A stretch of 63,903 nt of DNA, filler included, from Collodictyon triciliatum (GCA_043381765.1; 5 parts of 5 records of this genome joined end to end with filler, not necessarily neighbours in it), one strand, 5' to 3'. Shown: positions 12,843-61,116, counted from the first letter of the whole stretch. Numbers and translations are program-made. The notes: generated by a model not told the origin, from the letters alone.

Positions 12843-14981
12843 CTAGACATCGACGGGGAAGGCGACGCTGGACCACGGTTTGCAGTCGGGGGCGCGGGGC
12901 GGGGCGGGTTGGCTGCGCATGTGGGAGACGAAGTTGTGGACGATGGCGGAGGACGTGGCGGTGGCGGTGACGGCCTGCAACTGGCAGACGCGGGCCAGCG
13001 CCTCGATCAGCTTTTCGGCCAGGGCGTGGACCTGCTGCATGCCGGGCTCAGAACCAGCACCGGGGCTGCAAAGTGTCGAAGATGCAGGACGGGCCGTGGC
13101 TGTGGCTGTGGCTGTGGCCGCGTCTGTGGCTGTGGCTGTGGCTGTGCTGAAGCGGAGATTAAGGTCCAGGTCGAGGTCGAAGTCGGGCGCGGGGTCGGAG
13201 ATGGGGGCGGAGATGGGCTCCTCCTTGAGGGCGTCTGTGGACAGCGCGTCATCGGGCGTGTAGAGCCTGTCGAGCCCCAGTCCGGCCAGCGACCTGGCGA
13301 TCGAGTCCTGCCCGGGTGAGCGGGTGCCTCCCCCGCTGGGCCCGTGTCTGTGTGCGGGGTTGCTGGGGCGGGAGTCGGACTGCATCGCGTCCCACCAGGG
13401 CTGATCAAAGCGCAGCGGGTCGTCGCCGAAGGCTGCCCCGTGGGTCGCGTGCCCCAGGAACGGGGAGATGGTGCGGTGGCCGAGGTGTGCGCCGGGGCTG
13501 CTGTCTGCTGTGTATGTGCCCAGGGGGAGCGAGAAGAGCGGCGGCGACTCGCACAGGGACAGGCTGTTGCTGCCGGCCCATGGCTGTGAGGGCCCCGGCG
13601 TGCCCTCCAGCAGCGAGAAGAAGCTGCGCTCGTCGGCGGGGCCGGTGGCGCTGCCGTGGCCGGGCGATGGGGTCGCTTCGGGGCTGCTCTCGGCGCCTAG
13701 GTATTTCTGCATGATGGCTCCGGTCTCGCTCACATCTGCTGGTGCCGAGGCGCCTTGTGAGTAAGCGTGTCTGTGCGCGTTTGTGTGGGGGGACTGTGTG
13801 TATTGGAGTGGGGCGGGGTGAGCGGGCGGGGACAAACCAAGTGGTTGGGAGGCGAGGCGTCGCTTCTTGGACTCAGGAAGCAGCCCGGGTGTGATGGTGC
13901 ACACGTACTTGGCCAGGGTACTGAGATCCTTCTGGAGTGTTTCTTCAGAGTGGCGGGAGTCGGCAAGCTTTTGTCGCAGGTCGCGGACAGTCTCTTGTAG
14001 ATCCTATGGAGTGTAAATCAGAAGGGGGTCCTTGGAGTTTCGTAAAACCCCGTCTTGGGTTAATTATTATTATAATTCTTATTCGTATCCCCTTTTCTCG
14101 TATAGTGCAAAATGTGGGCATGTTGGCTTCTCTTTTTTTTTTTTTTTTGTGGGGCTTGGTCAAGTGCTAAAGGATTGAGTTGCCCACCTGGATTTTTTCT
14201 TCGAGGCTCTTCACAGACGTGGACAGCTGGTTTTTCTCTGAAGAGAGTTCTGCCACCTTGGTGCGACTAACTGGAGAGGTGATAGGTCAGCAGCAGGAAG
14301 TAGTAGGTTGTAGAGGGCAAGTGATATGTGTGCCAGCTGGAAGTGTACCTGTACACTAAACAAGTTCTAAAGAAATCAGGCAGGGCTGTACCTGTCTCGG
14401 AAGACACTTTTCGCTTGATGTCGATCAGGGCTTCGCGGTCTCCTCTCTTGAACTTAGGATGTGAGAAGATCCAGACACCGGGGTCAGCCGATGACTATTG
14501 GGAGAGAAGTGTAAGGCGCCTGAGAGAACCAAAGGCATGCTTATAGTGTATGGCAATGACAGGTCAGGGACTTCATAGTGTTAAGCAGACGATTCGAAAG
14601 AACAGTTCACGTGCCGACACAGAAGAGTCGCTCAACGAGGAGGTTTGGGAAAGAATGTCACACCTGTTTGTGGAAGCCGTAGATGTTAAGCTGTCGCACA
14701 AAACTCGTGATGTTTTTGTGTTTGAAGTAGACAGGGAGGATGTCTCTGGCCAGAGCAGCGGGGTTCTTGACTAGGAACGAGTCGCCTCGCTCCCCCCAGC
14801 AGACAGTCTCACTGTAGCGTGGGTTGCAGAGGAAGTCGTATGTTTGGAAAAGGAACGTGTTGTACAGCCGGCCTTTGCCTTCCGGTGTGTCTCGCATCGG
14901 TGCCGGCTCGGGCGTGTATAGGCGGCTGGTTGTTGGTGTTTGGGGTGTGGGCGGGTGTATGTTGCTCATGGCGATAGACAT
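12843..14981 (-). CDS. Heat shock factor (HSF-type DNA-binding domain) transcription factor, 4 exons
   Basis: FLFQTYDFLCNPRYSETVCWGERGDSFLVKNPAALARDILPVYFKHKNITSFVRQLNIYGFHK, then spliced WIFSHPKFKRGDREALIDIKRK, matches the HSF DBD. A heptad coiled-coil and a Ser/Pro/acidic tail follow, to TAG at 12843. GT-AG introns are in phase. Start is 14981 or 14969. Confidence 0.9.
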
Positions 14982-15314
14982 GTCTCTTGCTCGTCCGCGC
15001 GTCTAACGATGGTCTTGTAACTAGTGGTGCTGTTACCAAAAGAGTCGTGATTAATACGTGGCCACATCGGCAGAAGCTTTTTAGCAGCTGTTGGTCTCTC
15101 TTCAACCCAGTGCTGACCCATTTCATGGTTGATTTGTGGGTTTCGCGACTTCGGCCGGCTCTCGCGTCTGCTCTCAGAATCGATCCCTTCGATTCTGTTG
15201 ATGTGATTTCCCCTTGCCCGAAGCCTTGCTTATCTGCGGTTTGTGTGACCTGGCGTCTCAGCCTTTTGCGAGAACTATCAATTCTATGATCTACAAGATT
15301 GTACATAGCTGTTC

Positions 15315-15515: not shown

Positions 15516-16373
15516 GTTGTGGAGTCTTCTTGACCTGTCCTGGTACAGAAACGGTATGATAAAGCGCTGTTTTTTGACTTTGATTCCATCCTCCCCTTCG
15601 CCGCGCGTTGCACAATGTAGGTTTTTTTTTCTAATTTTCTTTTTTCCTGTCGAGAGAAGGCGATGTGGGATATCATTTGTTGCTGTTGTTCCAGGCAGCA
15701 GCGCGGATGGCAAACAATCAGCGGAAAGAAGAGACAAAGCAAATTTTATTTCTGGAAACTATATATATTCTGGTAATTTTATTCACGGTGGAGAAAAATA
15801 CCAGTTCATTGTTAAATTTACATACATTAAATGTACACTATATTGATTTATACATAAATGCTTCAAGTCCAAATGCGGAAGTGCTGCAGCCGTTATCTCG
15901 CCAACAACGTAACGGAATCGCGAACTATGTACAAATGTGGAATATATGGCGGTGAATTGGCGAGGTTTGGATTAAACCCAGATGAAGCCGATGTGCTTGG
16001 TCGGCTCTGTTTCGCGGATTCTGCAAAGGAAGGCCGCGCGCGACAAGGATCGAGACAGTTTGCATAGGAGAAAACTAGTATCGCGTCGCCTCATATATTA
16101 TGCTTCTTATTTGCACCTTATGTGCACATACTACTGAATGTCTTTTTTTTTTTTTTAACAAGAATAAAGGGCATTTATTTCGCTGTGATCTGTCGAAATC
16201 CTGGCCGACAATATGCTTCTTGGATGTTCCTTTATTTTCTTTCGTCAAGGGATAGAACTAGACAATAGCCTTTTTTCTTTCCTTTCGCACCACTATGATA
16301 GATGGCTTCTGTCCTTGTACTGAGACCTTTATTTTTTTCTTTTCTGTCCCCTCTTCGGCTTTACCTGGGAAGG

Positions 16374-19300
16374 ATGGAGTCGCTGCGTGTGGTTGTTAAT
16401 GCCGACAAGGATCGATTTGACCTCATGTTCGAAAGCCATGGCCACGGGGAAGAGCACGGCAGACTCACAGAATACCTTGAGGTAATGGATACTTTCCTCT
16501 TTTCTTTATTCATTCGGCTTTCACTCCACAAGCACAATGGTTTGAACCATTAAAAAAGAAAAGAAAAAAGAGGCAGTTACATACATTCTACTTGTCTATT
16601 TCCCCCGACTCAACGCACTGTCCTCGGTCGATCCGAATCACCACTTTTTTATGCTGACAAATTGAGTTTATATATATTTTACAAGCTCAGTATATATCAA
16701 CAGAGTTCGGTTGAAAACAAGACTAAATACTCGAAGCAGAATACAAGGACAGAAGTAACCTAACGAACAAGCTACCTATCAATAACTTATCTTTCAAATG
16801 TAGTGGGCTTCAAAAACGGCCCAGGATTGCTTTCAGGATGGAACGAGCCTTCCTCGCAATGTGGCTGGAGAGCTTGAAAATCTGGTCGGAATCGGGGCCA
16901 AGTGCCGTGTTGCACTGGACGAGGCCTCAAAGAAGAAAATGTTTCGGCCAGGGTCAAGCCTGAAGACACGCAGAAAAAAGATAGAGACTTACGTCCAAGA
17001 AATACACAGCGCGTTTCAGATTCTGGGTGCGGCCATGGATCAGGTTTGACTGGGTAGATAGATTCATTAAAGAAAAATATTTGTATTGTATTGAGGTGTA
17101 TAGATTAAAGCAGATTGAGATTATTATATATCATTTAGCCGCATTGTTTATTTTATATTATTCTGAATTGAATTGCAATGTATCGCCCTTTTCCGTTTGT
17201 AATTCATTTTATCCAAAAAAAGGAATACCAAAAAAAGCACCCCCTTTCCGAACATGATGACTTTATCAAACGAACCAAAAAAATTTGCATATTCGAAAGT
17301 GACATTAAATATGCGATCATCTCATATTATCTCCTCGTTTTGTGATAACAGGTTTGATACTTTAAATATTAGGCTCAAACCCGCGGAAAATCACCGTCCA
17401 TAGCAAGTGGGACCCGTGGAGATTTCAATCAAATTGAATTTTCGAGTCTCATATTCATGACAGAGGTATCTATGAAAGTTTTTTTCATCGAATTATTTTA
17501 TATGTATTCATCATAAAAATTTCAAAAGCATACACATCAGACTAGCATGTTTTTTTTTTTATGAATTCTCTAAAGCACATCGAAAACATTCTTATATGTA
17601 ATGAGCAAATTTGAATTACATTCATTGCTCAAAGCCATTCCCCATCAAGCTCTTCTCCATCATGTCAAATAAACTGAAAAGAACCCGAAAAAATTACATA
17701 CATGGCTCCTTTTTACAACATTCATTTCAATATTCTGTAAAATAGCTAAGAACCGGAGAATCAAGTATTCTGTACGAAGGTGTTTACAAAGGAAATAAAG
17801 TAGCAATAAAAAAGCTCACATGTTTTGTAAACGAGGAGCTTCTTGAACTCATGAAAAGAGAGGCTCGAGTCAGATCTTTTTCCTTTCAAAATCACTATAT
17901 CGTAATATTATCAATGCTGAGACTTATAATTTTCGATTCTGATGTTGGGCTAATGCTTAAACTTTTCTTCGATTCTAATAGCAATATCAAACCTAGATGT
18001 CTTTTACACTCAAGCACCCTTGTATCGCCCATCTTTATGGGGTCTGTGTAGAGAATGACAACTACTGTTTTGTAACCGAACTCATGGACAAAACGAGTCT
18101 TCGAGAAATGATAAAATCAGGAATTGTAAGTTTTGTTCAATCTAATGGAGGAACATTAACCAATATGATGATGCTGTTTCATGGGTTTTATTTATTTTTC
18201 ATTTACATTCGGCACAACATCATAAGGAGCACACGCCCTGGGTTCGTAGGTTAACTATACTGAAAGAAGCTGCTCAGGCTATGAAATTCCTACACAGCCG
18301 GAATATCTTGTTTCACAATCTGAATTCTTCATTCATATTGATCAATTCCAAGAACGAGGTCTGTTCGAACCAGATTTATATTACCGCCACACGTTATTTT
18401 ATATTGAAAATAGCAAGACTCAGTTCTGACAATCCATTGAGGTTTTTTTATGCAGGCTTTCTGGATTCTGTCCAACACATTTATTTATTATTTATTTACT
18501 ATTATGATATCATTTATCGTATTTTTCTATTATACCAGGTGAAGCTCAGTTATTTTGGCGCAAACGTAAGTAAAGAGAGCACTTTCTTATTTCCAGCCTT
18601 AAACACGATCAACCTGAAAGCTAATGAAGAGCGATCGACACATGGACGAGCGGCAGAAGAAAGGAAGGGAATGATGATTGATGTTCTTCGCTTCGGAATT
18701 ATTCTGTGGGAAACTTGGACTTCCAAGGTAATTATTTTCAGTCGATACAAAAAATCATTGTGCTTTAACCATTATTTATTTTGTGGCATAAAGAACGCAT
18801 GAAATTATACCTCTTCGCCACGCTCTATCCAACAAAGGAAAAGAAAAGAAAAGAAAAGTCACTAAAATAAGGAAAATATCGATACAGCTATTTTACGATC
18901 TAAGCCCTGCTGAGCGTGAAAAAGTTATATCTCTTGAAGATATATCTCTTTATCAGCTCAAAAGAAATCTACCACCCCAAGGATACGACTCGATCCTGCG
19001 CTCATGTTTTACTCAGTCTCCTCAGGAATGTCCCGACTTTACGCTTATTTTGGAATCTTTAACACAGATAGCCGACGAAACGTCAGGTAGTCGAATGATT
19101 CATAAATGCAGATAATTGATATACATATAGAATGGCCAATCTTTTCCTTTTTCCTTTTTCCTTTTTCCTTTTTCTTTTTTCCTTTTTCCTTTTTCTTTTT
19201 CTTTTTCCTTTTTTTTTTTTATGTAAAATATGAACCTTTTTAACTGGGAGCATCGCCTATGCCATTAAAATGATCTTTAATGACTTTATCATTGCATTTC

Positions 19301-22300
19301 CCATAATCGTTTTCGATTTCCAAACACATGTAAATAATCGCTCATATGTCAGCTGTAAAAATTACCCCACTTTCAATCGCCCTTTTCCTTTTCGTAATAT
19401 TTTTTGAAATAAAATTAATCAAAAAGACACTTCATCTGCCCCGTCCCGAACCCCTGGAATAAGTCCATCGGTGTCTTCATATGCCCTGGCTGCAACAACT
19501 CGATTGTCTCCTCCTGAAACCCCTCATGTGGAAGTGATTAAAGCGCTCGACCATGCCATAGGAAACATGGCTGAAAAGAAGCTTGACCAAGCACAAATGC
19601 TGCTGCAGGATTTAGTTGGTTCCCATGGTAACCACGTTGCTGGATTGATTATACTGAGACTTCTCTATCAACACCATCCGTCTGTTATTCCTCTTCCAAG
19701 AGCAAAAGATATTTGTGAGGATATTGTGAATCGCGCCCAAGCATGCTCTCCTGAAAAGAAACAAGAGTCGAAGGAAATATTGGATAATTTCTTTGCAGAG
19801 AGTAAAGGCTGCAAAACAAACAAGGACTCTCTCACAGTAGTGATTTATGGACAGTATCTGGAATGCATAGTGAATGACCCACAAGGAAGCTTTGAGTGCT
19901 ATTTACTCGCCGCAAAAAGTGGATCTGCTTATGGGCAGAACGAAGTCGGACTATGTTACACAATCGGATACGGTGTTCATCAGAGCTTTGTGGAAGCGTT
20001 CATGTGGTTTCAGAAGGCTGGAGAGCAAGGAGATGCAGACGCGTTGAACAATATAGGAAACTGCTACTACAATGGAAAGGGTGTAGCCACAAGTTATCCA
20101 GATTCTGTAGAGTATTATTCAAAAGCAGCAGAGCTCGGACATGGGACAGCTATCAACAATCTTGGATTCTGCGCTGAAACTGGGTTTGGGATGGAAAAAG
20201 ATGTCAAAGCAGCATTCAAGTACTATCTCAAATCTGCTGATTATGGCATAGGAAATGCACAGAATGATGTTGGAAATTGCTTTATGAAAGGAACAGGGAC
20301 AGAAAAAAATCCGCAACAGGCCGTGGCGTGGTACAAAAAAGCTGCTGAACAAAAACACCCGGACGGGTCGTTCAACTTTGCCAACTGTTTGGAAAATGGT
20401 ACTGGAATACAAAAATCCATCACAGATGCAGTCAAATATTACAAGGTTTCCTGTGCGGCATCCTATGCCCCTGCCTTATTCCGATTGGCCAAACTCTATC
20501 TCACAGAAGAAAGCCTGGGTATGAAGGCACACGACGCTATAAAATTACTAAAGAAATCTGCATCTCAAGGATATGGAGAGGCGGTGTATGAACTAGGACG
20601 GTGCTTTGAAGATGGCATTGGAGTTACAAAGAGCGCGCCGGATGCACTGAAGTGGATTAAACGTGCCTCTGAACTTGAAGTTCCTGCCGCTCAATTCCAT
20701 TTGGGCGGGATGCATGAATCTGGGACGGGAGGTCTTGTACAGAACTATGCGGAGGCATACAAGCTTTTCCGTCGGTCAGCAGAACACGGATACGGAGATG
20801 CCCAAAGCAAGGTCGGAAGCTACTACCGAGATGGGCGTGTTGTGCAGCAGAATCTTCGAGAAGCCATCAAATGGTACGAGGCCGGAGCTAAGCAAGGAAA
20901 TTCGAATGCGCAATACAACCTTGGATGCTGCTACGAAAAGGGCCAAGGCGTCCCGCAGTCTTACGAAAAGGCGTTTGAGTACTATCGACTTTCTGCCGAT
21001 CAAGGCAACTACCGCGGAGAAAACAATTTAGGATACTGCTATAAAAATGGACGTGGGGCCAGAGCTGATGCTGCTGAAGCTGTGCGATGGTACACAAAAT
21101 CAGCTGAGAAGGGATACGCTGTGGCACAAAACAATCTTGGGAGTTGCTTCTACTTTGGTCACGGAGTTTCACGGGATTTCGATAAGGCCATAGAATGGTT
21201 TACGAAAGCAGCAGAGAAAGGAAACCACGGAGCTCAATATAACCTGGGAGTGAGCTATGCGAAAGGACGGGGAGTTCCCTGTGACCTTGGCAAGGCACTC
21301 GAATGGTTTGCAAGAGCTGCGGAGCAAGGAAACCCGGATGCTCAATACAACTTGGGAATCTGCTATGCTAGTGGGCAGGGCGTAGTAAAGAACTCAACAG
21401 AGGCCTGCAAGTGGTTCACAAAGGCTGCGGAGCAAGGAAATGCAGATGCCCAAAACAACCTTGGAATGTGCTATGAGCGAGGGGATGGCACCTTTCATAG
21501 CACAGACGAGGCCATTAAGTGGTACAGAAAAGCAGCAGAGCAGAATAATATCCAAGCACAGTATAATCTCGCGCTATGCTATACAATCTACATGGAGGAC
21601 GAAGCGCTACACAAGGAGGCGATCTATTGGTTCAAGAAGGCAGCGGCGAGCGGGGAATGCAACGCGCAGTACAATCTGGGAGTGTGTTATGCAAGCGGGC
21701 GTGGAGTTGACAAGAACGTGGGAGAGTCTGTGAATTGGTTTATGAAGGCAGCAGAGCAAAACCACCCAGATGCACAGTTCAACCTCGGATGCTGCTTTGC
21801 GCAAGGGAAAGGTATTGCACGAGACTACAAAGAGGCAGTGCGGTGGTTCAAGAAAGCGGCTGAGTCTGGAGACCCAAACTCCCTCTACAATCTGGGCATT
21901 TGTTACGCAAGCGGCAAAGGCACGGAGCAGAATCTGGCAGAGGCCATGAAGTGCTATCGCGGGGCTGCTCAGCAAGGCCATCTCGAGGCGCAAAGCAGCC
22001 TCGGCTTGTGTCTCTTCAAGGGCCGCGGAACGCCACAGAACTTTGAAGAAGCTGTGCGCTGGTTCAAGAAAGCAGGAGAGAAAGGCAACGCGACTGGTCA
22101 GGCGTACTACGGCTTTTGTCTTGAAAATGGCCATGGAATCCAAGACAATCGGCGCGAGGCAGTTCGCTGGTACCGGATGGCCGCGGCGCAAGGCAATGAG
22201 TTTGCAAAGACGCAGCTTGCAAAGTTGGGCGAGTCTGTTGCACCTCCCAATCACCATCCTCATCACAGCAACAATCACAACCACAGCCAGCAGCAGGCCG

Positions 22301-22350
22301 CTGGGGATGGAGACTTCCGCCCGATTCCTGGGCTTGGGCGGCTCTTCTAA
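16374..22350 (+). CDS. N-terminal helical bundle + pseudokinase + ~21 Sel1-like repeats, multi-exon
   Basis: ATG 16374. In-phase GT-AG splicing links exons encoding LYEGVYKGNKVAIKKL, LKHPCIAHLYGVC, FLHSRNILFHNLNSSFIL, VKLSYFG and DVLRFGIILWE to the exon 19427-22350. That exon encodes 36-aa AQxNLGxCYxxGxGVxxxxxEAxxWxxKAAEQG repeats. Confidence 0.85.
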
Positions 22351-22736
22351 GTCCGGATTCACCCTCTCCTTTTTGGTTTTGTCTTCTTTTCTTTTTTTTT
22401 TTTCCTACGCCTCCTGACTATCTATCATTTCCCTTCTCTACTTTCTTCCCATCCTTGTTTTAATATATTCTAAGTGCATATTCATGAAGTTGTGACAGGA
22501 GGCTGTCCTGATGGGTGTTTGAACTTTGTTTTCTCAGTTTATCTCGTTAATTGGGGCTGAGCCAAGGAGAGATGCAACTGTCACGCTTCGGAATCGTGAT
22601 GAGTGCTGCGCCTGAACCCCTCTTTTCTTTTTATCTTTTATCTCGAGTGTTTTAAAGGAACAGATACACGCGTGCATTGCAAGTAGCAGTCAGTTCTTCT
22701 GTTTCAAACGCTGGCGCAGAAAACCTCCTGAGTTAC

Positions 22737-23098
22737 ATGAAAGTCTAGGAAACCCGAGCAAGGAAGCCGCCTACAAGTCTGTCTGATCGGACAGTATTTT
22801 TGCACGGGGTCGAGCAAGTCGTTTACGACAAGAACAAGGCCCGCAGACTCACAGATGTGCTCGCCTCCTTCTTGAAAGCGAACAAAATTTGCGAAGAGTC
22901 CATCCAACTGCGCTTACCGGACAGCGAAGGTATTTGCCTGATCGCCTTCCGCACTGCAGAAAACGCCCGAAAGCTTGTGGAGCTGAAGCAGGTAAGTTTG
23001 ATCGATATTACGATCAGCTTCAGCAGAAGTAAACCAACAGAGACCTCGGTGATGCTCTACCAACTACCGCTGGACGTGTGGCCGCAACTCCTTCGTGA
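22737..23098 (+). mobile_element. Probable non-LTR retrotransposon (L1/Tx1-like) ORF1 relic, cut by a gap
   Basis: Intronless frame ...CLIAFRTAENARKLVELKQVSLIDITISFSRSKPTETSVMLYQLPLDV resembles the RRM-like N-terminus of L1-clade ORF1p. In-frame TAG at 22746 just after ATG 22737. No RT or endonuclease visible. Confidence 0.45.
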
Positions 23099-23198
23099 NN
23101 NNNNNNNNNNNNNNNNNNNNNNNNNNNNNNNNNNNNNNNNNNTTAATTAATTAANNNNNNNNNNNNNNNNNNNNNNNNNNNNNNNNNNNNNNNNNNNN
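23099..23198. other. Artificial linker N44-TTAATTAATTAA-N44
   Basis: 12-mer with stops in all six frames, centred in exactly 100 nt. Confidence 0.95.
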
Positions 23199-23310
23199 AC
23201 ATACATACATACATACATACATACATACATACATACATACATACATACATACATACATACATACATACATACATACATACATACATACATACATACATGC
23301 ATACATATAC
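23199..23310. repeat. (TACA)n microsatellite
   Basis: Direct reading. Confidence 0.95.
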
Positions 23311-23970
23311 TATCCGATAGGTTGAGCGTGTTCTTCCCGACTCCATCAACCCCCAAGTCAATTACCCCAGACTCCACTGCAGAAGAGCTGGACTCGCCAC
23401 GCTCGTGTGGCTCGGCCACTCTGTGAACATGAAGAACCGCGCCCCCTCGACTTATCACGCAAAACCCAACAAACTCTGCAAATCACAGCGTGGGTAAATG
23501 TGGTGATCACACTGACAGAGGCAGACTTGAGAGGAACAATAAAAACAAACCCATGAATAAGAGTAAGTCTCTGATGCTGAGAAACTATTAACACTGAGAG
23601 ACAGAGAGTACATTCTCCAGAAAATAGTATTATTACAGTGGCGTTCTTTCCTCTCAACCCACCGCATCCCGAAGCCGGAAAAAACTGAAAAAAAAAACAA
23701 GCAAAAAAAAAAACAAGCAAGCAAGCGATTGGAAAGAGCGATCCCGAGAAGGAAGAGACCGGCGCCACAGCCCTGCCCCATGGAACGCCTACTGACCCCA
23801 CGCAAAAAGAGAAGGCCGACGCAGCCGACGCAGAGAGCGAAAAGGTCTCCTTACCACATCCCTTGCTACACAGGTTATGCACCGAGACACACCTACGATC
23901 AAGACGCCAGCTGCCATCGACCCGTGAGTGCAACAAACTAATAATAAGACGGAGCGAGCTCTTTGAAACA

Positions 23971-26511: not shown

Positions 26512-27207
26512 ATGTCTTCAAAGCTGCCACGCTCAACCAGCGCAAGTCGAGTCCCGACCACCTCCAAGGCTGCTCACTCTTCTCCATCAGCCCGGGAAAA
26601 AGAGCTGCAACGAGACAATCCCACTTCTGCACCAGCGAGAAATCGATCGGCCTCAGCCTCTCGGATGCGTCCGGCTTCAGTCGCAGCCACTTCCAATAAC
26701 AGCAGAATACCGCCAGCAAAGCCAGACTCAGCCAGACAGCTACCTGCAGTACTGGTTGCCAGGAAAACAGGGCAGGATAATGCAAGCGTCGCGCCAGTGT
26801 TGAAAGGACGTCTGGCTCCCTCCAGCAAGATAGGTTCTGGACGTCGAAGCCAGCGAACTCATCTCTTCAGTCAGCTGCCTGACGAAATACTATTGATGGT
26901 ATGTTTGTCGATTGAATTCGTATTATGTATGTATGTATGTATGTATGTATGTATGTATGTATGTATGTATGTATGTATGTATGTATGTATGTATGTATGT
27001 ATGTATGTATGTATGTATGTATGTATGTATGTATGTATGTANNNNNNNNNNNNNNNNNNNNNNNNNNNNNNNNNNNNNNNNNNNNNNNNNNNNNNNNNNN
27101 NNNNNNNNNNNNNNNNNNNNNNNNNNNNNNNNNNNNNNNNNTGTATGTATGTATGTATGTATGTATGTATGTATGTATGTATGTATGTATGTATGTATGT
27201 ATGTATG

Positions 27208-27238
<31 letters not shown>

Positions 27239-29277
27239 TTTTCATCATAGAGATAATTTAGCAATTCACAGTTACCCAAAAAAAAACACCTGAAAAAAGG
27301 TATTTAGTCATTTGGAACCATATGACCTATGTCGCTCGATCTGCAGGTATAATTTATTTCTTATCAAGTAACTGGTCTCCATAGACTCCCTACAAATCTC
27401 TGAATGTCATTAGAAAAGTTTATTTAATAAAATGTGAGCCGCCTTTTCTACTAGGGTTTGTAAGCTATGGAATCAGCTTTCTTCGGAAAATACCTTATGG
27501 TAAAAATTGGTCATAATTTTCACCAATCTCTCGTCATTTTCATTGTTTTTAATTAAATTTTTAATTTTTTTGCTTTTATTTTAATGCATTTTTATTTCCA
27601 TTATGATTCTTTATGCACATGGTCTCTAAAAAGCAACTTTATAGAAATTTGGCTATTGAAATGGTATTAACTTTAATTAATATGTATGACTCTATGAATT
27701 CGCACGTTTTGTCCTTTCACATGACAGGAAGTCGTTATTTGAACATAAAAATACGGTTTCACTTTCGTCTCAGTCATCAACTTTATCGATGAAATGGAAA
27801 AAACGCTACTTGGATAGAATAAATCAAGTAAATATTTGAAATAGTTTATTTGCACTAACGCTTAAATACCAGGCTTTTGTATATTTAATTATATGAATTT
27901 TTTATTATTAGCGTTAGTCGTATTAGTAGTAGTATTAATATGATAGGAGAGGAATCAAGAAAGGGAGCTTTATCTGAACACTTTCACATCCAGTTTAAAA
28001 AAGTCTTTTAGCCGATTCCGTAGAAGAGACAACCAGGTATGTGTCAAGTGACAATCTTTTCTTCTAGCATTACAAATTGTTTATTTGTACCATGAAATTT
28101 AATAGATTAACAGCCAGCGGATGGTTCTAGAGATGAACTTGTCGTGGACAATAGATTTGGTGGACCTTGACAATCGAATACATCAAGTAGCTTCGTTTTC
28201 ATTTGATAACACTGGTCTAGCGAGGGTAAGAAGATCGGGGTGAAGGAGATAGGAAATATATTTTCGTATGTATATATCAGAAATAATAAACTTCGAATAC
28301 TTTTTAGAATAAACAAGCAGTTATGTTTCAACATACGCTGCATTTACGGCCACGGTTGGATACCCAAGCCTTAATTCCATTATCCAGAGTAAAGGAACTG
28401 GTTGTTTCAGGCATCGCGACCCAAGTATATATGATTAAAATACAAGAAATAATATCTTCTTTGTTCATAAATATCATTGTCAATATGGTTGAATTTCTTC
28501 TCAATTTTCTCTCGTAATTTTGTTTCCATTCCCCTCAGTAAAATATATATTTATGAAAAACACAAATATTAACACATGCAGGTATCAACCCGGCCGTGTT
28601 TTTTCAAATATGCAGAAAAGTTCATGAGTGACCGGAAGGCTTTTGGCATCGACCGCAAAAAAGCTGTTGAGAGTGAGCTTTAGCTATCGCGCTCATTTAC
28701 TTTTTTTTTTTTTTCCTTTTCTTTTTTTACCTGGCTGATACATCTTATTCCCACCACACCCATTAGCTCCTACAAGCCGTCAGTTAGAATGTTCCTTCCA
28801 CCCTCAAAGATAATGTTCTGTTTCAAAGAATGAATTTAACTGTTCATAGATGTAAGCAGCTGGAACTTATCATCCCAGAATGATGCTGTTATTCTTTACT
28901 CTTCAAGCTCCTTGAGATTTACTCTGGGTGTGTGGAGAGACTCGAAAGACATATGCCTTATAACTGCCACCCTTCTGCATACAGATATCATGAAGCAGAT
29001 TTTTTCTCAAATTCCTGACTTAGATTGGGAGAGAAAGGTATTGCCACTGTATATATAAAGAGACTGAAAGTTGAATTTTTTTCTGGGTTTATACCTATTA
29101 TAGTCGCGCATTGCAAATACTTTAGTAATGTGACTGACTATATAGATGGGAGCGCAGTTGGCCGCATATTTGCGACCACACATACCATACGATGATGACC
29201 TTGATTCGAAGTTCGGATTGCATGATTATTGCCTCCATCTCGAAATTCGTACCGGAACTAGGACGGTTTGGTCTAGT
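26512..29277 (+). CDS. FBXO15: F-box only protein 15-like, 3' truncated by a gap
   Basis: Spliced F-box FSQLPDEILLM|VFSHLEPYDLCRSIC|RVCKLWNQLSSENTLW. Downstream LGVWRD and PYDDDLDSKFGLHDYCLHLEI match the FBXO15 C-terminal DD..yGLHgY.lH motif as I recall it. Confidence 0.75.
26923..27236. repeat. (TATG)n intronic microsatellite spanning a 100-N gap
   Basis: Direct reading. Confidence 0.95.
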
Positions 29278-30009: not shown

Positions 30010-30799
30010 ATGCAATCCTCGCGAGTCAGTCCCGCCCTTTGCCCTCCGCGCCCGCTTCCGGAGTCTGGCCTGTCAGCCTCGTTGTCGTCGTCTTCTCCGC
30101 ATTCCTCGATGGCGTCGCCCACAGACAGGGGAAACAGCAAGACAGAGGCTTCTCCAAACCAGGTTTCGCAAAGCATGCGCAAAACACGCAACTCAAACAC
30201 AGAGTATCCCACTTCGCCGCAGTCTTTCTTCCATCAGTTCGGCCGCTCTCGAAACCACAGCCCTCCGTCTGATCCGCAACCGATTCTCCCAGCAAAAGTC
30301 CCACCTTCGATTCCGCGCGAAAGTCGCCTGATTACACAGTATACATCGTGATAATTGTCTATGCTTTTTTCTCCCTTTCTTTTTCTCTCTTTCTTTTTCT
30401 CTCTTTCTTTTTTTCTCTTTCTTTTTTTCTCTTTCTTTTTTTTTTATCTCTCTTTTTTATCTCCCTTTTTTCTCTCTCTCTTTTTCTCTCTTTTTTATCT
30501 CTCTTTTTTATCTCTCTTTTTTATCTCTCTTTTTTATCTCTCTTTTTTATCTCTCTTTTTTATCTCTCTTTTTTATCTCTCTTTTTTATCTCTCTTTTTT
30601 ATCTCTCTTTTTTATCTCTCTTTTTTATCTCTCTTNNNNNNNNNNNNNNNNNNNNNNNNNNNNNNNNNNNNNNNNNNNNNNNNNNNNNNNNNNNNNNNNN
30701 NNNNNNNNNNNNNNNNNNNNNNNNNNNNNNNNNNNTTTCTTTCTTTTTTTCTCTCTTTTTTTCTTTCTTTTTCTTTCTTTTTTTTTCTTTTTTTTTTTC

Positions 30800-30868
<69 letters not shown>

Positions 30869-32796
30869 TCAATTGTAGTTAACGCGAACGATTTTGTTTC
30901 TTACTCATTCTTATTACAATAGACGACCGAAATCGGGTACATCTGAACAAATGCGTTCCAGGCTCGCCCAAAAACCAAATCTTTCACCACATTGCGTAGA
31001 CTCTGCAGACTCTGGTAAGATTAAATCATGAATAAGCAAATGCATTAAATTAAATGGCATTGATGAACAACCTTATTCGCACATACAATCCATTTCAAAT
31101 CATTTTCATATTATATAGCTCATTTTTTGTTTATCTGATATTCAAAGAAAATTCGTACAAGAAAGTGCAAGTGGAGGAGTCAAGTGTCAGTTTTCACAGC
31201 ATCGATTCACGTCAAAGATCGCGCAGCATTGCAAATCCTCAATGCACGGACTCCGAGGACGCGTCAGAAGCACCCGAATCGACCCTTCATCCGTTCGATT
31301 ATACAGACTCTCATAATAGTCGCCCAGTTACAAAATTACTCATGTCAATCACACCAATGACCCCGCCTACTCTTTCCAGAGCAAAAGCATCATCCAACTC
31401 CACAGGACCAAATCCCAGCAACATCGAGTCTCTGTCTTCGTCTGTAATTCCATCACAAATGCAAAAGCAGGCTTCTTACAACTTTCCTCCAGGCCAACCC
31501 CGAAGTCAAAACACGTATCCGCCAGAACGCCTCTTGAGGCGACTTCGAATGGCAGCATCGCCAAAACATCACCCGACCGAGGTCAACTCTAACTGCGAGA
31601 AGCAAAGTCGCAACCATGCATCCAACTTACAAATGCAGCTCACTATACAGAGCCAAAAGGTTGCAGGCCCGGCTCAGCCTCAAATCCAAAGTCAGTCCAA
31701 GACACAAATTCCCGGACCTACTGTTTTGCAATCTATCACAGCTCCTGTCACATTGTCTTCTGCAGCAACAGCACCCACTATAGCAGGCCCAGCAACTTTG
31801 TCGATCTCAGCAACCACATCTCGGTCCATGTCTCAAGTTCCTCAGGATGCAGTTGTGGACACATCAAAGCGTCGCTCCAGACAGAAATCCTATGTGAACA
31901 ATATGTACAACTCTCCAGACCCGTTTGTGCTTTACCTAGCCGGTCCGATTCTGCTCACAGCCCCACACGGCCTACGTCTTATTCGTGGCGGCGAGAAGGG
32001 TGAACGGCGACGAATCCACAAGCGCGAACGATGGGTGAATGAGTTGATTGTCCGGGTGGCCAAGCACCTGGAGGAACACTACGGTTTCATGGTAAGCTTT
32101 ATGCTGTGGAACCTGAACACCGCCCGAAAAGCAGACAGCACAAACCTAGATCCAAACTACCTCACACGCCCCCAGTTTGCCCAAAGTCCTTGGCATCACG
32201 CTCTTGTGCAGTTCAAGAAGCGCTTTCCGCACTTCCCTGTTATGCACATCGACGTCCACGGCAAAATGGACCGCAAGGCAAACCTCGACTTGGATTTGGG
32301 AATGGAGCCCATGCACCAATTCTGGCCGCACAAGAAAACAGTCGACTCTTTACGTAGTAATCTGGCCAGTTGCTTTCGAGGAGCATTTCGTGGGGTCAAA
32401 CCCCCGTTGCCGCCAAACGATACACGTGAGTTTGGAGTGGAAGAAGACCCGTACTTGTGTGGATTCTGGGGTGTTAACTCCTTCTACACAATGACCCATC
32501 AGGCTATAATCTCAGGGATTCCGTCAGCACAACTAGAAATTCCGTACACCCTGCGAAGTACTCTTTGCACAAACTCTGCCGCGTTGGCTGCTTTTGCAGA
32601 TGCGATTTATAGTGCTTATCAAAATGGTATTTTGGCCCTTCATCCCGACCGCACGATTATGGATGCTGTTGTGATATCTCGTCAGACTACCCATGTGTCA
32701 AACTGTCCAAGGACAAGTCAGTTTCAACCAATTGTCGCAGAGATGGTTGCGGATTTGGAACGAATGGACAAGGCGAGCGACGAAAAGTGTATTTAG
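30010..32796 (+). CDS. Ser/Pro/Gln-rich N-terminus + N-formylglutamate amidohydrolase-like Zn hydrolase domain, 3 exons
   Basis: Exons ~30010-30338, 30922-31014 and 31148-32796 splice in phase. C-terminal motifs PILLTAPHG, HIDVHG and AQLEI are typical of the FGase/Zn-exopeptidase fold. Confidence 0.7.
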
Positions 32797-42376: not shown

Positions 42377-43785
42377 TCAATACTGAAGCCCCCTAATTAA
42401 TTTGCATGTTTTTTTTTTAAAAAATGAAATAAAATAAAAAAAAACTGGCATAATGTTATACAATATGAAATTGAAAGTTGGATTTTAGCTATTCAATCGA
42501 AAGTAGTCACCATTTTTCAATGCCACGGCCAAAATATAATCCTGTTGAAAACTCTGGGCATATAGCAACCATCCTATCCAAATAAGCTAGTGAATCGTTT
42601 TCTCCTGGGAAGATTTCATCTCTAGAAACACTTTGTTCACTCAGCATACCATCAACTTGCGTACCGCGATAAAGGAGATTAAAGCAACCATCTATATCAC
42701 TCAATGCGAAGGAATATTCATCCATATTGTCGACGAGACCCAATCCGACAGCCTTACAGAAAACATGTATAAATACAAAAGACAATGGGACACCATAAAT
42801 AACTTATGAACCAACAAAAAAAAAATTAATAATTCGTAACCATACAGAAAAGTAACCTTAAGATAGGCTTCTTTCAAAGACCAGAGTAGATAGAACCTAA
42901 AAAAATAAATGGATACTATTAGTTTTATTGTAAAAAAAAAGAGGGATGGAAGATGTATAGAATACGTAAGTTTTGAAACCTTTGAAGTCTTTGAAGTAAT
43001 TGTCTGTCAGCTCGGCTTTCCAAATGACATTCTCTCAGGAAGCAATGTTTGTCGGTTAGGCATTCCGAAAAGACAAACAATTTTTCATTCACAGAGAGAA
43101 CGCTGGACATATCATCCAGAAAGCTGGTTATGTCTTCATCCTATATGAAAAGCAGGGCTCAGTCTAACTTCATCCTTACGAACAAAACAAAAAATTTCGA
43201 ATAGAATGAGGCCGCCCTTCTTTCCGCTATGCTTTCTTTACATAATTTTGATAGATATCATCGAAGCAAATGTCATCTCTTCAATACTAACGCATTGAGC
43301 GGGTGGATACGCAGCAATATGAGACACATCGAGACCCACAGGCCCAGCGAAGGAAATGCACACAACAACCCAATCTTCTTGATGAGAAATACTAATGCTT
43401 GGTGTTGAGCCCACAATGGCTCTCAAATGAGTCTCAACAGCACTGCTCTAGATGAATTAAAACATACTCTGATGGAATTGTAAGGTGCTTAGAAAAAAAA
43501 ATATTTTAAAGATAACCAGGATATAATGAAGGGGAAACGATAGATGATTCATTATGGAGATAGCGGGAATCAGTTAAATCAAATACAAGAATAGGTTGCC
43601 CTGATGGAAGTTTTTCAAGTAATCTCTGGTCGCGGGGCCAGACACCAAAACTGTCGGCAGCAATACGTTGCAATATCAGATTTTGATAGAGTTTGGATAA
43701 ATAGAGTTTTCAACAACACATACAAGAAAAAGCAGGAAACCTCGACACTAAATCGTGAAGTAAGAGGCGAGCGAGGATACGAGCC

Positions 43786-43846
<61 letters not shown>

Positions 43847-44395
43847 AATTAATAAATAAAAAAAAAAAAAAAAAAAAATAAAAAAAAAAAAAAAAATGAA
43901 AAAGAAAAAGAAAATGAAAATGAAAATGAAAATGAAAATGAAAATGAAAATGAAAATGAAAATGGAAATGAAAATGGAAATGGAAATGGAAATGAAAATG
44001 AAAATGTAAATGAAAATGTCAATGAAAATGAAAATGAAAATGAAAATGAAAATGAAAATGAAAATGAAAATGAAAATGAAAATGAAAATGAAAATGAAAA
44101 TGAAAATGAAAATGAAAATGAAAATGAAAATGGAAATGAAAATGGAAATGGAAATGGAAATGAAAATGAAAATGTAAATGAAAATGTAAATGAAAATGTA
44201 AATGAAAATGAAAATGAAAATGAAAATGAAAATGAAAATGAAAATGAAAACATGAAGAGAGAATAAACTAACAACCTTGCCATTTGTTTCCCCTAACCGC
44301 TGCACTATCCCGAAGCCCGCGTCACCCCAACTTCTCAGCACATCTGCTGGAGGCTGCCAGCGCGATACCTGACAGGCTCGTAAGTGAATGCTCAT
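42377..44395 (-). CDS. Sfp/Lys5-type 4'-phosphopantetheinyl transferase
   Basis: PSGQPIL, ISISHQEDWVV..PVGLDV and FYLLWSLKEAYLK|AVGLGL motifs; 3' end uncertain (42377 or 42507). Confidence 0.85.
43908..44250. repeat. (GAAAAT)n intronic hexamer repeat next to a poly-A tract
   Basis: Direct reading. Confidence 0.95.
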
Positions 44396-44799
44396 TTGCC
44401 ACAGCAGAGCGAAACAGAGTCTTTGGCTTCGGGATCGTCTCTACGATCTCGTTTTAAAAATACATGAGTCTCGCCTTAGCCAGTCACGCCTTCTAAGCTA
44501 CAAAGAAAAATAAGTCTGTCCATGCGATGATTTCATTCCTAAAGACAAAACAAAAACAAACAAAAACATCAAAAAAAAAATACTAATAATCCAGACAAAA
44601 AATAGACTATATCGCTGCTTATTTCCATAATTATGCATCGCAATTATCAAAAGATATCAAAAGATATCAAATGCTCATGCAGCAGCCGGGGTGACAAAAC
44701 AAAGTGTGCAAGTTTTTTATTGTCAAATCTGCCGAGAAAAAAACTGCGATATATCGGGGTATTCTTTTCTTTAATCCCAGAGGACAACCGAAAATATTT

Positions 44800-51800: not shown

Positions 51801-54800
51801 CTTCGATTACATCATTAATTACACATCACTTCAGATAATTTTAGCCCTTTTTTAACTTATGATATTCGAATTTTTTTGTGTACAAAAAAGAACATGTAAA
51901 CTCCTGCAATCGAACGCCTTTCTGAGCAGAGAGGAAATCTGTCAACGCAACCTCATCTAGTGCTGTTTCAGGTCCTCGGGATATCACCGCGATGTCAGCC
52001 CCTAATAAAAGCTAGAAATTCGGTAAGATGTGAATCTGTTTCGAGTCACCGAACCAAAAAGAGATGAAGAGAAAATAAAATTTGCAAAAAGACTATGAGT
52101 TTCTTGAAAATGATAAAAATCAAGAGTAGGTTATCATATGGACATGTGTTGGAAACTACTTTCACGTTGTCGACAATAGCGTTTGTTTGCAATGTAAACA
52201 TAGCTCCAGCAAAGATTCTATGAGAATTAATTTATTTTACTACAGAACAGTATGTATAGAGTAAGTATAGAGACTTCAAAATATATGTATGTCATTAAGG
52301 AAGGAGAGGAAAGGAAAACATCGGATATAATCAAATACATAAATGACAAGGCGATTGTAAACATGAGTCCCGTTTTTATATTTCTCTCTCCGTGGCTCGA
52401 TTGGTTCTTATGTATCAAGTTGATGAGACGCCTATCTTTTCCCCACACAATCAGGAATACAAAATATCTTTCTAGTATCGGTTGCAATGTTTGAGATATC
52501 AGGGCGAATCCAAGGACCATTCCTATGAAAATGCACATACATGACCATCACATGTCATAAGTATCCGACTAAAAAAAAAATTAAGAGATTTAATCATGAA
52601 TAACACGTGTTTTGTAATGAATATATTCATAGACAATATTGGAAAAAGTATTGAATAAGTTGAAACCATATTTAAAAAATCAAATCGTATTGTCACCAAA
52701 AAAAAGAAAGAAAAAGGCAAGGTGATGATTTGATTGACAAACCCAACAGTATTGCATTCAGTAAGGAGAAGAACATGGTCAAATTTCCAAAGGTGAATGA
52801 TAAGGGCATCAAGTAATACACAACAAATCCCATAATGACCATTATTATAGCACTAGATGTCTATTCGTATCATTTTTTTAAGTCCCACGAAATTATATAT
52901 ACTTTTTTTACAGAAAAACTATGAATCGAGTAAAATATACCTGCCATCCAGACAGTCCTAGGTCTTCCAATTTTATCATTTTTACTGTAGTTTCATTAAA
53001 GCTTTGGTGATAGATATCTAAGGCGTCCCTGAGACTCTTGGAGAGTGACCTCTTTTTTAAAATCGTATTTGTAAATATTAACATTAAATCACAATTTCGT
53101 ATCATTTAGCTATTTAATAATGATAACACAGCAATCCGGGTGTAGAAGATAACGGTATAAATTGAGAATGAATGAGTAGACAAACGCTTGTAGGAATAAC
53201 ATTTGATAACAGTGGTATCAGAATGCCCAACACAATCGGAACTCCCAACGCAGACGATGTAAAATTGAATGAGACATGCTCATACGAATACGAAGCAATT
53301 ACATTTGAAAGAGGTATATTAAAGAAGTATGCCACCAAAAGCCCCAGAACGACCCCAGGTATAGCAAAGAATAACGCCTAAGAAAGAAAAAAAAGCATAT
53401 ACAGGTTTGATTCGGGAAAAATAGCACAATATGAGCATAGGAAAATCTAATACCATTCAGAGAATCTATTCGAATTTACAGCTTTTTGTTCTCACCTGCG
53501 TAATCATCACGTGAATCAGATTACGACTTTTCATTCCTAAAGTTCTCAGCATTCCATATTCAAAAGTTTTTTCACTGACATCAGATATCATCAAAGAGAA
53601 TATTAATCCACAACCGAGTAGTGATAACAAAACAACAGCATCTGCAAAAATCTAGAATCGGGTTCAAGTTGATGAATAGAAAGTTACTCAATACATATGG
53701 TACTAATAAAGCCTACTGACAATTTTTTTAAAAAAAAAACTAATAAACCTTTCAAAACGGAATATTTCTTGAGAGAAAGAATAACCTGGTCCAAAAATAT
53801 CCGAACAAACGATGTAAGAGTCAAGTAACTAACAAGGGGTAACGAAAATGATCCAGGGAAGTCAATTCCAATAGCTTCAGACACATCATTTGTGAATTTG
53901 ATCATGTCCTACACATGCATTTGCATATGTGCGTTAGAGCTTTTTGTATCAACTTTCAAGAGTTCCCATATTGTGATGCAAGATAGAAAAATAGCACATA
54001 ACTATCTCCTTGTTAATTGTATTTTATTTCTACAAGTATATTAACATTTTGTATTTTTTAAATTAACATAATGGCCTCATGTAGCTTTATTTTGAAGGAC
54101 TACCTGGTCCAAATCATCCTGACTCTTCACATATGATTTTATACGGTCTTTGTACTGGACTGAAGCCAGAAATGCATAATCCTGATATTTATCATAAAAA
54201 TAGTCATTAAAAGGATTGTGTTAATTTAATATTTTTCTTTTAATGGGTACAAATGGGGGGGGGGGGAAGTGATTCATTAATACCGTAAATGTTATGTTTG
54301 CAAGATTCTGATTTATTGCTGGCGGTGCAATCAAATCGCCCTAAAAGTCAAAGGATGATAAACTCTGCTTTTCGTTTTTTTTTATTTTTTATTTTATTTT
54401 ATTTTATTTTATTTTATTTTATTTTATTTTATTTTATTTTATTTTATTTTATTTTATTTTATTTTATTTTATTTTATTTTATTTTATTTTATTTTATTTT
54501 ATTTTATTTTATTTTATNNNNNNNNNNNNNNNNNNNNNNNNNNNNNNNNNNNNNNNNNNNNNNNNNNNNNNNNNNNNNNNNNNNNNNNNNNNNNNNNNNN
54601 NNNNNNNNNNNNNNNNNATGATAATGATAATGATAATGATAATGATAATGATAATGATAATGATAATGATAATGATAATGATAATGATAATGATAATGAT
54701 AATGATAATGATAATGATAATGATAATGATAACGATAACGATAACGATAACGATAGCAATTTGGCGTCGGTTTCACGACAGAGGAAAAATATAAGGAGAA

Positions 54801-57010: not shown

Positions 57011-57551
57011 ACAGCAAGAAATAAGCAGAGACAGAACCTTCCACAGAGATGACGATTGTGGTATTGCAGAACTAGATTGAATTATCTATTTGTGGATTTT
57101 TTCCTTTATTCGATTCAAATCTATTTGTGGATTTTTAAATTATTCTAATAATAATAATTTTTGGTTCAAATTAATGACATTATCTAATCAATATATTAGT
57201 TATAAATATTAATATGTATAATTTAGTCACAGAGCAAGAATTCTGCGCCATGCTGTTGCTGCCTACATTCCATTCTAATAAACAAAATGTTGGGACTTGA
57301 TTGAAATATTTCCTTATTTGATTACACATTTGGAACCATTTTGAATATATCCATTTATAGATAAGATCCAAATACAAAACACAAACCTCCAGCACAGAGA
57401 ACTTCATATATAATCACACACTCTGCACTGGGGGTATCTTTCCCAACTGATCACAGAATCATCGCTATCCAAGAAAACCATCACACGCCCAAGCCCGCGT
57501 TCAAGCCCGCCGAAATCCAAAGAACCAAAACAAACCAAACCGAGAAACAAG

Positions 57552-57995
57552 ATGCCACCCAAGCCTGGAGCCGGAAAGAAGCCGTCCAAGTCGCCTGCCA
57601 CATCAGCTGCCAAGGAAGGCACAGCAGCGCCCGAGAAGGTTGCCTCCAAGACCGTCAAGAAGTCGACCACGGACTCGTCGGAAGTCAAGAAGAGACGCGT
57701 GAAGCGCGCAGAGACATACTCGTCCTACATCTACAAAGTGCTGCAGCAAGTCCACCCCAAAACCGGAATCTCGCAGCGCGCAATGGCCATTATGAACTCG
57801 TTCATCAACGACACCTTTGATCGCATTGCCTCCGAAGCCGGCCGTCTCGCCCGCATCAACAAGCGCGGCACTCTGACCTCGCGCGAGGTTCAGACATCTG
57901 TCCGCCTGATTCTGCCCGGAGAACTCGCCAAGCACGCCGTGTCTGAGGGTACCAAAGCTGTCAGCAAGTACAACGGCTCCGGAACACCCGCCTAG
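57552..57995 (+). CDS. H2B: Histone H2B (intronless, long Lys/Ala/Ser/Thr N-tail)
   Basis: [46 protein letters not shown]...[32 protein letters not shown]. Confidence 0.97.
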
Positions 57996-60525: not shown

Positions 60526-61116
60526 TTGCCGCATCCCTTAATCATCTATCACTCCCATCGAGGGCTTCCATTCACCACATTATCGGTAGATTTTTTTTTA
60601 TATATATTTGGGTCGTTTGTCTCGGTGTCAGGCCGGCAGGCAACAAGTAGGAAATCTATCCGAGAAGTCTGCATGTTTATGTTTGGTCGGGAATCAGATT
60701 GTAGAAAAGCGGGCGAGAGACTTTGTGAAACCCCACAGCAAAACTGAAATGAAAAGAAAAAGACAGTCTCGAGGGAATGAAAACGGAGAGAGGCGAGAGG
60801 AAAAAGGGAGTAGGCTTCAAAGGTAAAGTTAAGACTTTCAGTTTCTCTAAAGATCGGTACGCATAGGCCGCCGCGAATGGAGTTCCCTTCGGAAGACATG
60901 TTGTTCGCCACAGACGAGCCGCTCGCAGTGCAATACAGTTTGTTGCAGTCTTGAACAGCCATTCCTTTTTTTTTTCTTTTTTCTTTTTTCTTTTTTCTTT
61001 TTTCTTTTTTCTTTTTCTTTTTTCTTTTTCTTTTTTCTTTTTCTTTTTTCTTTTTCTTTTTTCTTTTTTCTTTTTTCTTTTTCTTTTTCTTTTTCTATTC
61101 TCATCTCTCAAATCTC

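Follow-up and report, generated by a model that had tools for sequence, protein, structure and literature searches.

Does the locus at positions 16374–22350 (+ strand) of this stretch of Collodictyon triciliatum DNA (GCA_043381765.1; 63,903 nt, the whole of which is called the window below) encode a single MLKL-like receptor, in which a helical bundle, a dead kinase and a Sel1 array are chained in one polypeptide, or a kinase–Sel1 protein that has a small helical gene as its neighbour? The first of these was proposed in a first-pass annotation made from the sequence alone, and the span given there starts and ends exactly where our independently built gene model of eight coding exons (E1–E8) does. 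Data from the present analysis favour the second, with a probability of about 0.6: E3–E8 lie on one mRNA that would encode a non-catalytic kinase–Sel1 protein, and E1–E2 somewhat more likely belong to a separate gene.

The kinase–Sel1 transcript

In the gene model, GT..AG is found at every exon boundary and the phases agree, as read from the sequence and checked by script, and the joined open frame of 4044 nt encodes 1347 amino acids (aa) and ends in TAA. The window has the composition of eukaryotic DNA, with AT-rich intergenic regions and introns (29–36% GC), GC-richer exons and many microsatellites, and tblastn of the model against these 63.9 kb gave no second copy of the gene. Four RNA runs were used. 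Two of them, X1 and X2, come from the same study and from different organisms, and they hold about half of the sampled words of the stretch, as is the case for spliced RNA; X3 holds a small share, in short or low-complexity pieces only, and nothing was placed from X4. Contigs of X1 and X2 were aligned to positions 15800–22800 (some of the cuts are given shifted by 2), and their loose ends, which include template-switch-oligo-like sequence and a tail of 23 A, behave as those of poly(A) cDNA.

Six of the seven proposed introns (1, 3, 4, 5, 6 and 7) were confirmed exactly by these contigs (Table 1). One X2 contig (record 7) carries E3, E4, E5 and E6 spliced together, another (record 8, 2760 nt) spans E6-E7-E8 in spliced form, and an X1 contig (record 2) runs from E5 through a retained intron 5 into spliced E6-E7-E8. 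The poly(A) site was placed at 22480, where an X1 contig has the 23-A loose end, and an X2 contig ends at 22481. Due to this continuity of contigs across E3–E8, kinase and Sel1 repeats are placed on one transcript, i.e. the kinase exons and the Sel1 exon form one spliced, polyadenylated mRNA. The single kinase–Sel1 transcript assumed in the first-pass annotation is thus borne out, as the RNA contigs join the two parts and do not assign them to separate transcripts. Between 18179 and 18725, X1 record 2 keeps intron 5 together with the end of intron 4 and splices introns 6 and 7, while X2 splices introns 4 and 5. Hence, intron retention or pre-mRNA is present in the X1/X2 libraries.

Compared with the window, X1 and X2 show 25 exonic differences, of which 12 are synonymous and 13 non-synonymous, where only 22% synonymous changes would be expected at random; thus, the protein as a whole is under constraint. 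The Sel1 units account for 10 synonymous and 6 non-synonymous differences. At 18566, the G of the window is an A in X1 and in X2; the substitution turns Val254 into Ile and abolishes a cryptic GTAAGT donor-like site within E6. X1 and X2 also share an insertion of 6 nt behind 22270, which is in frame and falls in the C-terminal tail.

The kinase domain, the Sel1 array and their relatives

Similarity to kinases was found for single exons as well as for the joined domain. Pfam PK_Tyr_Ser-Thr is matched by E4 at E 6e-6, above the cutoff, and by E5 at E 6e-3, below it. In the search of PDB sequences, the best matches of E4 are ITK and DDR1 (E 7e-5), and the best match of E5, over the catalytic loop, is LIMK1 (E 3e-5), along with RAF and other TKL kinases; MLKL is absent among the best 60 of the 97 matches of E4 and of the 103 matches of E5. 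E6 alone gave no match to PDB sequences at E ≤ 10, and E7 alone gave no homologue among longer proteins. Once joined, the 257-aa domain aligns over query residues 7–243 to the kinase of P0105 (E 8e-25) and also to the Sel1-fused kinases P0074 (E 6e-20) and P0011 (E 3e-14), all in a search space of 121 proteins. The alignment to nine relatives extends over subdomains I–XI, as for a complete protein-kinase fold.

In alignments to LIMK1 and to the relatives, the three residues on which phosphoryl transfer depends are lost: HRD has become FHN (Asp to Asn), the catalytic-loop Asn has become Phe, and DFG has become YFG (Asp to Tyr). Moreover, the catalytic-loop Lys is replaced by Asn, APE by ANE and the Arg of subdomain XI by Cys, and the middle Gly alone is kept in the GxGxxG loop. 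Structural motifs are retained, namely VAIK with its β3 Lys, the αC Glu and the DVxxFGIxLWE helix. The motif changes given in the first-pass annotation (VAIK kept, Gly-loop degenerate, HRD to FHN, DFG to YFG) all hold in these alignments, and so does the pseudokinase call that was made from them; ‘no APE’ was nearly right, the aligned triplet being ANE.

In the relatives these residues are retained. The best 120 matches of the Sel1 array include 22 kinase-bearing proteins with 23 kinase domains, in which the HRD Asp is present in 22/23, the DFG Asp in 22/23 and the loop Asn in 23/23. The losses are confined to one partial domain, the second of P0065, and all 22 proteins have one kinase domain that keeps the residues. 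Set against these 23 domains, only the window protein has lost all three. By the usual definition, under which one or more of β3 Lys, HRD Asp and DFG Asp are lost, its kinase is a pseudokinase, and because the relatives retain the three residues that are lost here, it is a derived pseudokinase within a family of kinase–Sel1 enzymes that are, judged by residues, apparently active.

The array itself is matched by Pfam Sel1 (PF08238) on E8 in 19 stretches, at E 6e-177, and register analysis resolved 21 full units of 36–37 aa and a half unit, in agreement with the ‘~21 repeats’ counted earlier. At E ≤ 1e-3, the array matched 6550 of the 8000 proteins that were scored. The heads seen in the best 120 comprise TIR, NACHT/NB-ARC, caspase/CHAT, dynamin-type GTPase and trypsin domains, in addition to the protein kinases of the 22 proteins above. 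Such Sel1-array proteins with TIR, NACHT, NB-ARC, caspase/CHAT, dynamin-GTPase or trypsin heads (P0003, P0004, P0008, P0030, P0044, P0052 and others) have arrays that are 35–48% identical to that of the window and likewise C-terminal, and they differ from it in the head, which here is a dead kinase without an NTPase switch. By analogy, a role as sensor or scaffold is consistent with the like arrays that other proteins combine with TIR, NACHT, caspase, CHAT, GTPase and kinase heads, and the first-pass annotation too ascribed a sensor role to the array. The comparison with an NLR stays an analogy, as the NTPase domain is absent: no NACHT or NB-ARC domain was found on any of the eight exons (Pfam, E ≤ 1). 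For the linker between kinase and array, no Pfam family, no homologue (searched with E8 residues 1–175) and no related metagenome contig was found, and the AF2 model of the linker with the first three Sel1 units was of low confidence (pLDDT 40.7) and unusable.

Like the window protein, the kinase–Sel1 fusions of Actinomortierella wolfii (P0011), A. ambigua (P0055, P0063) and Glomus cerebriforme (P0016) and the eukprot protein P0092 have an N-terminal TK/TKL-type kinase followed by a long Sel1 array, and their kinase domains align end to end with the window kinase. Unlike it, they keep the Gly-loop, HRD, Asn and DFG; the identity of the fungal ones to the window kinase is low, at E 3e-14 or weaker, and the window gene may have an extra 116-aa helical head. 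Bacterial Ser/Thr kinase–Sel1/TPR proteins (P0029 and P0058, ‘TPR repeat protein/serine/threonine protein kinase’; P0121, Chromatiaceae) share the combination of kinase and Sel1 array, but they keep the active-site residues, are without introns, often have 420-aa N-terminal extensions and are Hanks-type, with Pkinase outscoring PK_Tyr_Ser-Thr, whereas the window kinase is TK/TKL-like. Kinase–Sel1 fusions are already known from Mucoromycota and bacteria, and an expansion of kinase and Sel1-like families has been reported in Rhizophagus irregularis (PMC8647823); what would be new, to judge from the sequences compared here, is a member with a dead kinase.

A working picture of the protein can be put together from these features. 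The E3–E8 mRNA would be translated into a TK/TKL-type kinase fold, a linker of ∼157 aa, 21.5 Sel1 repeats and a short His/Asn-rich tail, with the pseudokinase probably derived from the family of active kinase–Sel1 fusion proteins. The Sel1 solenoid would bind a protein partner or ligand, and the dead kinase would serve as a docking or allosteric module, possibly nucleotide-binding and oligomerising, rather than as an enzyme, so that the protein might act as scaffold, sensor or decoy in the pathway of its active kinase–Sel1 relatives. In early-diverging fungi and in bacteria, kinase–Sel1 fusions make up families that are large and expanded and whose function is uncharacterised. An expressed and well-supported member whose kinase is dead would show that the architecture can work without catalysis, and it offers a simple case for asking what the ligand of the Sel1 array is and whether the kinase fold plays a role as a switch.

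The helical exons: one gene or two

Whether E1–E2 are part of this protein depends on the joint from E2 to E3 (17043 to 17746), and no such joint was found in the contigs of any of the four RNA runs. Instead, two contigs read through the E2 donor. Record 1 of X1 (541 nt; depth 19.1, compared with 6.2 for the kinase contig) has ∼19 nt of 5′ untranslated region (5′UTR) and E1 spliced to E2, and then continues unbroken past the donor to 17209; record 6 of X2 has E1–E2 and likewise continues unbroken through the proposed donor to 17173. From 16802 onwards both cover the DNA without a break, and the read-through beyond 17043 amounts to 166 and 130 nt, respectively. In X2, all six other introns are spliced while the E2 donor is read through. 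In the unspliced frame, E2 is followed by TGA at 17047–17049, two codons past the donor, which would give a 118-aa product. RNA cover is absent at 17210–17437 and low at 17438–17693 in both X1 and X2; regions without cover were not counted as evidence of absence. E1 and E2 also differ from the kinase exons in GC (52–53% versus 37–43%, by script). When metagenome contigs were scanned with E2 or the linker, pattern matches were obtained, with no tblastn relative and no cDNA-like contig across E2–E3. The position of the kinase was determined in 21 of the kinase–Sel1 relatives: it lies within 50 aa of the N-terminus in 12/21, after 120–420 aa in 6/21 and C-terminally in 3/21, and a counterpart of E1–E2 was found in none of the relatives scanned.

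Because of the donor read-through, the stop after two codons, the gap in cover at 17210–17437 and the difference in GC, and because most relatives have their kinase near the N-terminus and all those scanned lack a counterpart of E1–E2, these two exons (116 aa) are somewhat more likely a separate small gene than a part of the kinase gene. The two contigs that run into the stop speak against the putative link between helical N-terminus and kinase on which the first-pass annotation relies. The small gene would end at the TGA past the donor with its 118-aa product, and the kinase–Sel1 protein would start from a short first exon somewhere in 17210–17745. The region 17044–17745 may alternatively to an intron be the 3′UTR of the small upstream gene, followed by the promoter and the first mini-exon of the kinase gene. 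Mini-exons with an ATG are present in it, e.g. at 17457–17465, with a donor GAG then GTATCT and an intron of 280 nt; none was seen in the RNA. Downstream of the kinase–Sel1 gene, RNA contigs of much greater depth (115–200, compared with 9–30 for the Sel1 gene) cover the + strand from 22752 onward, where an open frame at 22749–23093 matches no Pfam family. These contigs start ∼270 nt past the poly(A) site at 22480, which indicates tight gene packing, and thus two genes within 16374–17745 are feasible. At its 5′ side, before 16371, X1 record 1 has a loose end of 19 nt, which had 0 matches in the window at ≤3 mismatches; judged by eye it would be a diverged 5′UTR rather than a spliced leader.

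Several points weigh against the separate gene and the reading built on it. E3 has an in-frame TAG just upstream and lacks an ATG before VAIK, and hence an upstream coding exon is required; the GT donor of E2 is in the right phase for E3, and no other upstream exon was seen. Contigs are unable to reveal rare isoforms, including a minor form with E2 spliced to E3. As one X1 contig keeps intron 5 together with some of intron 4, retention of the intron could also explain why the E2 donor is read through, and oligo-dT may in addition have primed internally at the A-run 17215–17222. Moreover, the kinase part shows 0 synonymous and 5 non-synonymous differences between X1/X2 and the window, which could reflect relaxed constraint on a dead kinase, in numbers too small for a claim at the level of domains. 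The scaffold or sensor function, for its part, is drawn by analogy from domain knowledge.

If E2 were spliced to E3 after all, E1–E2 would be the true N-terminus, and they need not resemble MLKL: they may form a plain coiled-coil or helical hairpin through which the protein dimerises, without membrane activity. This possibility, which we regard as rather unlikely, shares the splice logic given above (the E2 donor in phase, the upstream exon needed by E3). It is also consistent with the predicted shape of E2. The AF2 single-sequence model of E2 alone (pLDDT 76.6) has helices at 18–42 and 53–79 and a short one, with the long helices packed as an antiparallel hairpin, and the structures that it matches best are coiled-coil hairpins of a generic kind and designed helical oligomers. 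Thus, of the ∼115 aa of amphipathic helices described earlier, the prediction bears out those of E2 (80 aa: two long helices and a short one), the only part to which the check applied. N-terminal extensions of 120–420 aa also occur in 6 of the 21 kinase–Sel1 relatives; however, no extension homologous to E1–E2 was found in any of them, and the read-through of the E2 donor and the difference in GC between E1–E2 and the kinase exons speak against a fusion of any kind.

The proposal of an MLKL-like executioner goes further. There, E1–E2 are spliced to E3 and form a 116-aa HeLo/MLKL_N four-helix bundle, which would permeabilise membranes, be restrained by the pseudokinase and be released when a ligand binds the Sel1 repeats. 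Animal and plant MLKL consist of a HeLo/four-helix bundle, a brace and a pseudokinase, with a Ser-rich C-terminus added in the plant proteins, as described in a preprint (bioRxiv 10.1101/681015), and the placing of a helical module directly upstream of a co-oriented pseudokinase resembles that layout. The window shares with MLKL a TKL-like pseudokinase with the β3 Lys and a short helical module encoded directly upstream, which in a language model weakly resembles MLKL_N clusters. The pseudokinase, as judged by residues, is real, and the phase compatibility of E2 donor and E3 acceptor and the need of E3 for an upstream coding exon are as favourable here as for a plain hairpin. In one survey, the homologues of the TCDB ‘MLKL family’ are confined to Glomeromycotina and bear Sel1 repeats (PMC8778642).

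The language-model lead comes from the ESM Atlas. For E2, nine of the ten best matches to named clusters agree in family or clan with the highest-ranked match that has a family, and clusters bearing PF22215 MLKL_N (with MCAfunc, RPW8 or DUF7792) stand at ranks 2, 3, 6, 11 and 17, with scores of 0.79–0.85; among all Atlas clusters, an MLKL_N-bearing one stands at rank 27. These scores are below 0.9, with 111–135 of 256 features shared, and the recognition value of 2193 is below the threshold of 2300. The Atlas rates such a result as a lead only and notes that a third of shuffled proteins also yield fully consistent families.

Other comparisons point away from MLKL. Neither E1 nor E2 matches a Pfam family at E ≤ 10, in a Pfam that includes PF22215. 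Among PDB sequences, E2 has two matches only, to rootletin and a spidroin, both at E > 1 and neither of them MLKL. The Foldseek comparison with MLKL that the first-pass annotation had suggested, run on the E2 model, gave generic helical hairpins, with MLKL absent from the best 50 of at least 500 matches, and VIA-align of the same model gave generic helical hairpins too, with MLKL absent among the best 50 entries. A phmmer search of E2 against 1.84e9 representatives gave a single match, P0001 (E 8.5e-4), a repeat protein of 1645 aa in which SCP2 is sub-threshold only. As it matches via nine short repeated stretches, it was judged spurious, and E2 is thus left without a credible homologue among the 1.84 billion representatives. 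Support for the putative four-helix or HeLo fold of the first-pass annotation comes from the weak Atlas lead, and from none of the Pfam, PDB or fold searches.

Differences from MLKL are also seen in the architecture. E2 alone is modelled as two long helices and not four. With E2 and E3 fused in the model, the last helix of E2 extends to residue 79 of its 80, and the Gly-loop begins three residues into E3, which leaves no room for an MLKL-type brace, and a Sel1 array of 21.5 units stands in place of the short C-terminus. The similarity does not extend to the sequence, as the kinase exons are best matched by ITK/DDR1 and LIMK1/RAF; the fusion of head and pseudokinase lacks an RNA joint, its donor being read through into a stop in two contigs, and the four-helix bundle of the head is putative. 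In the open-access text searched, no Sel1 protein was found described that combines a dead kinase with an MLKL_N head. Taken together, an MLKL-like executioner spliced in this way is quite improbable, and an MLKL-like executioner head of either origin is on balance unlikely.

The same low standing applies to the wider idea that the locus holds a third, independently assembled MLKL-type system, with a HeLo/MLKL_N-like executioner, a pseudokinase switch and a 21-unit Sel1 sensor, either in one polypeptide or as an adjacent two-gene module with a 118-aa head; we consider it a long shot. If it were true, the trigger would be ligand binding by the repeats in place of phosphorylation by RIPK3. With an MLKL_N-like bundle that is attached to the pseudokinase, or works with it, the locus would add a new example of the ‘membrane-killer plus pseudokinase’ design from beyond animals and plants, and as its sensor domain is recognisable, activation could be tested directly.

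Gene decay, with a kinase part that is degenerating and a locus that would turn into a pseudogene or come to encode Sel1 repeats only, is hardly credible: three catalytic residues are lost, all five kinase-part differences between the related organisms are non-synonymous and the kinase exons are lower in GC than the other exons, but the frame is intact over eight exons and 1347 codons, precise splicing and polyadenylated mRNA are seen in two related organisms, VAIK, the αC Glu and the DVxxFGIxLWE helix are kept, and five of five non-synonymous changes are expected 29% of the time under neutrality (78% non-synonymous sites), which is not the same as decay.

Feature coordinates and the rest of the window

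Table 1. Features of the kinase–Sel1 locus and of the exons upstream of it, with the RNA joints observed
Feature	Position	Strand	Remarks
E1	16374–16481	+	36 aa, ATG start; first exon of the helical-module transcript
E2	16804–17043	+	80 aa, predicted helical hairpin
Proposed intron 2	17044–17745	+	702 nt, GT..AG, phase 0; RNA-unconfirmed
E3	17746–17868	+	kinase β1–β3: degenerate Gly-loop, VAIK (Lys138 of the fused model), αC Glu
E4	17997–18125	+	end of kinase N-lobe, hinge; joints on both sides in X2
E5	18227–18358	+	αE, catalytic loop (FHN-L-N-SS-F for HRD-L-K-xx-N); joints in X2
E6	18539–18727	+	YFG, activation segment with ANE, conserved D-x-x-x-FG-I-x-LWE helix
E7	18888–19086	+	end of kinase C-lobe; phase 1 at 3′ end
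E8, first part	19427–19896	+	linker of ∼157 aa, model residues 374–530, without recognised domain
E8, Sel1 array	19897–22230	+	21 full units and a closing half unit, model residues 531–1308
E8, C-terminal tail	22231–22350	+	His/Asn/Gln-rich; TAA 22348–22350
3′UTR	22351–22480	+	ends at the poly(A) addition site
RNA joint, intron 1	16481 to 16804	+	X1, X2
RNA joint, intron 3	17868 to 17997	+	X2
RNA joint, intron 4	18125 to 18227	+	X2
RNA joint, intron 5	18358 to 18539	+	X2
RNA joint, intron 6	18727 to 18888	+	X1, X2
RNA joint, intron 7	19086 to 19427	+	X1, X2

Elsewhere in the window, Rfam gave 0 matches over the whole length, and two long open frames on the + strand, at 31054–32796 (580 aa) and 60955–62241 (428 aa), match no Pfam family at E ≤ 1e-3. 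Long microsatellite and short-period arrays lie at 23150–23330, 26900–27260, 30300–30900, 43750–44440, 54345–54800 and 62309–62883, and several of them are broken up by stretches of N, which mark assembly gaps or masked sequence. The + strand at 57414–57995 encodes a core histone fold (Pfam Histone, E 3e-16), which by eye resembles H2B and has a long Lys/Pro-rich N-terminal extension.

Upstream of the kinase–Sel1 gene and on the opposite strand, an exon at 14658–15002 (−) encodes an HSF-type DNA-binding domain (Pfam E 5e-21). A low-complexity open frame of 386 aa at 12843–14003 (−), which lies in a block of 61% GC at 12–14 kb and has no Pfam family, is a candidate for the C-terminal exon of this heat-shock-factor gene.

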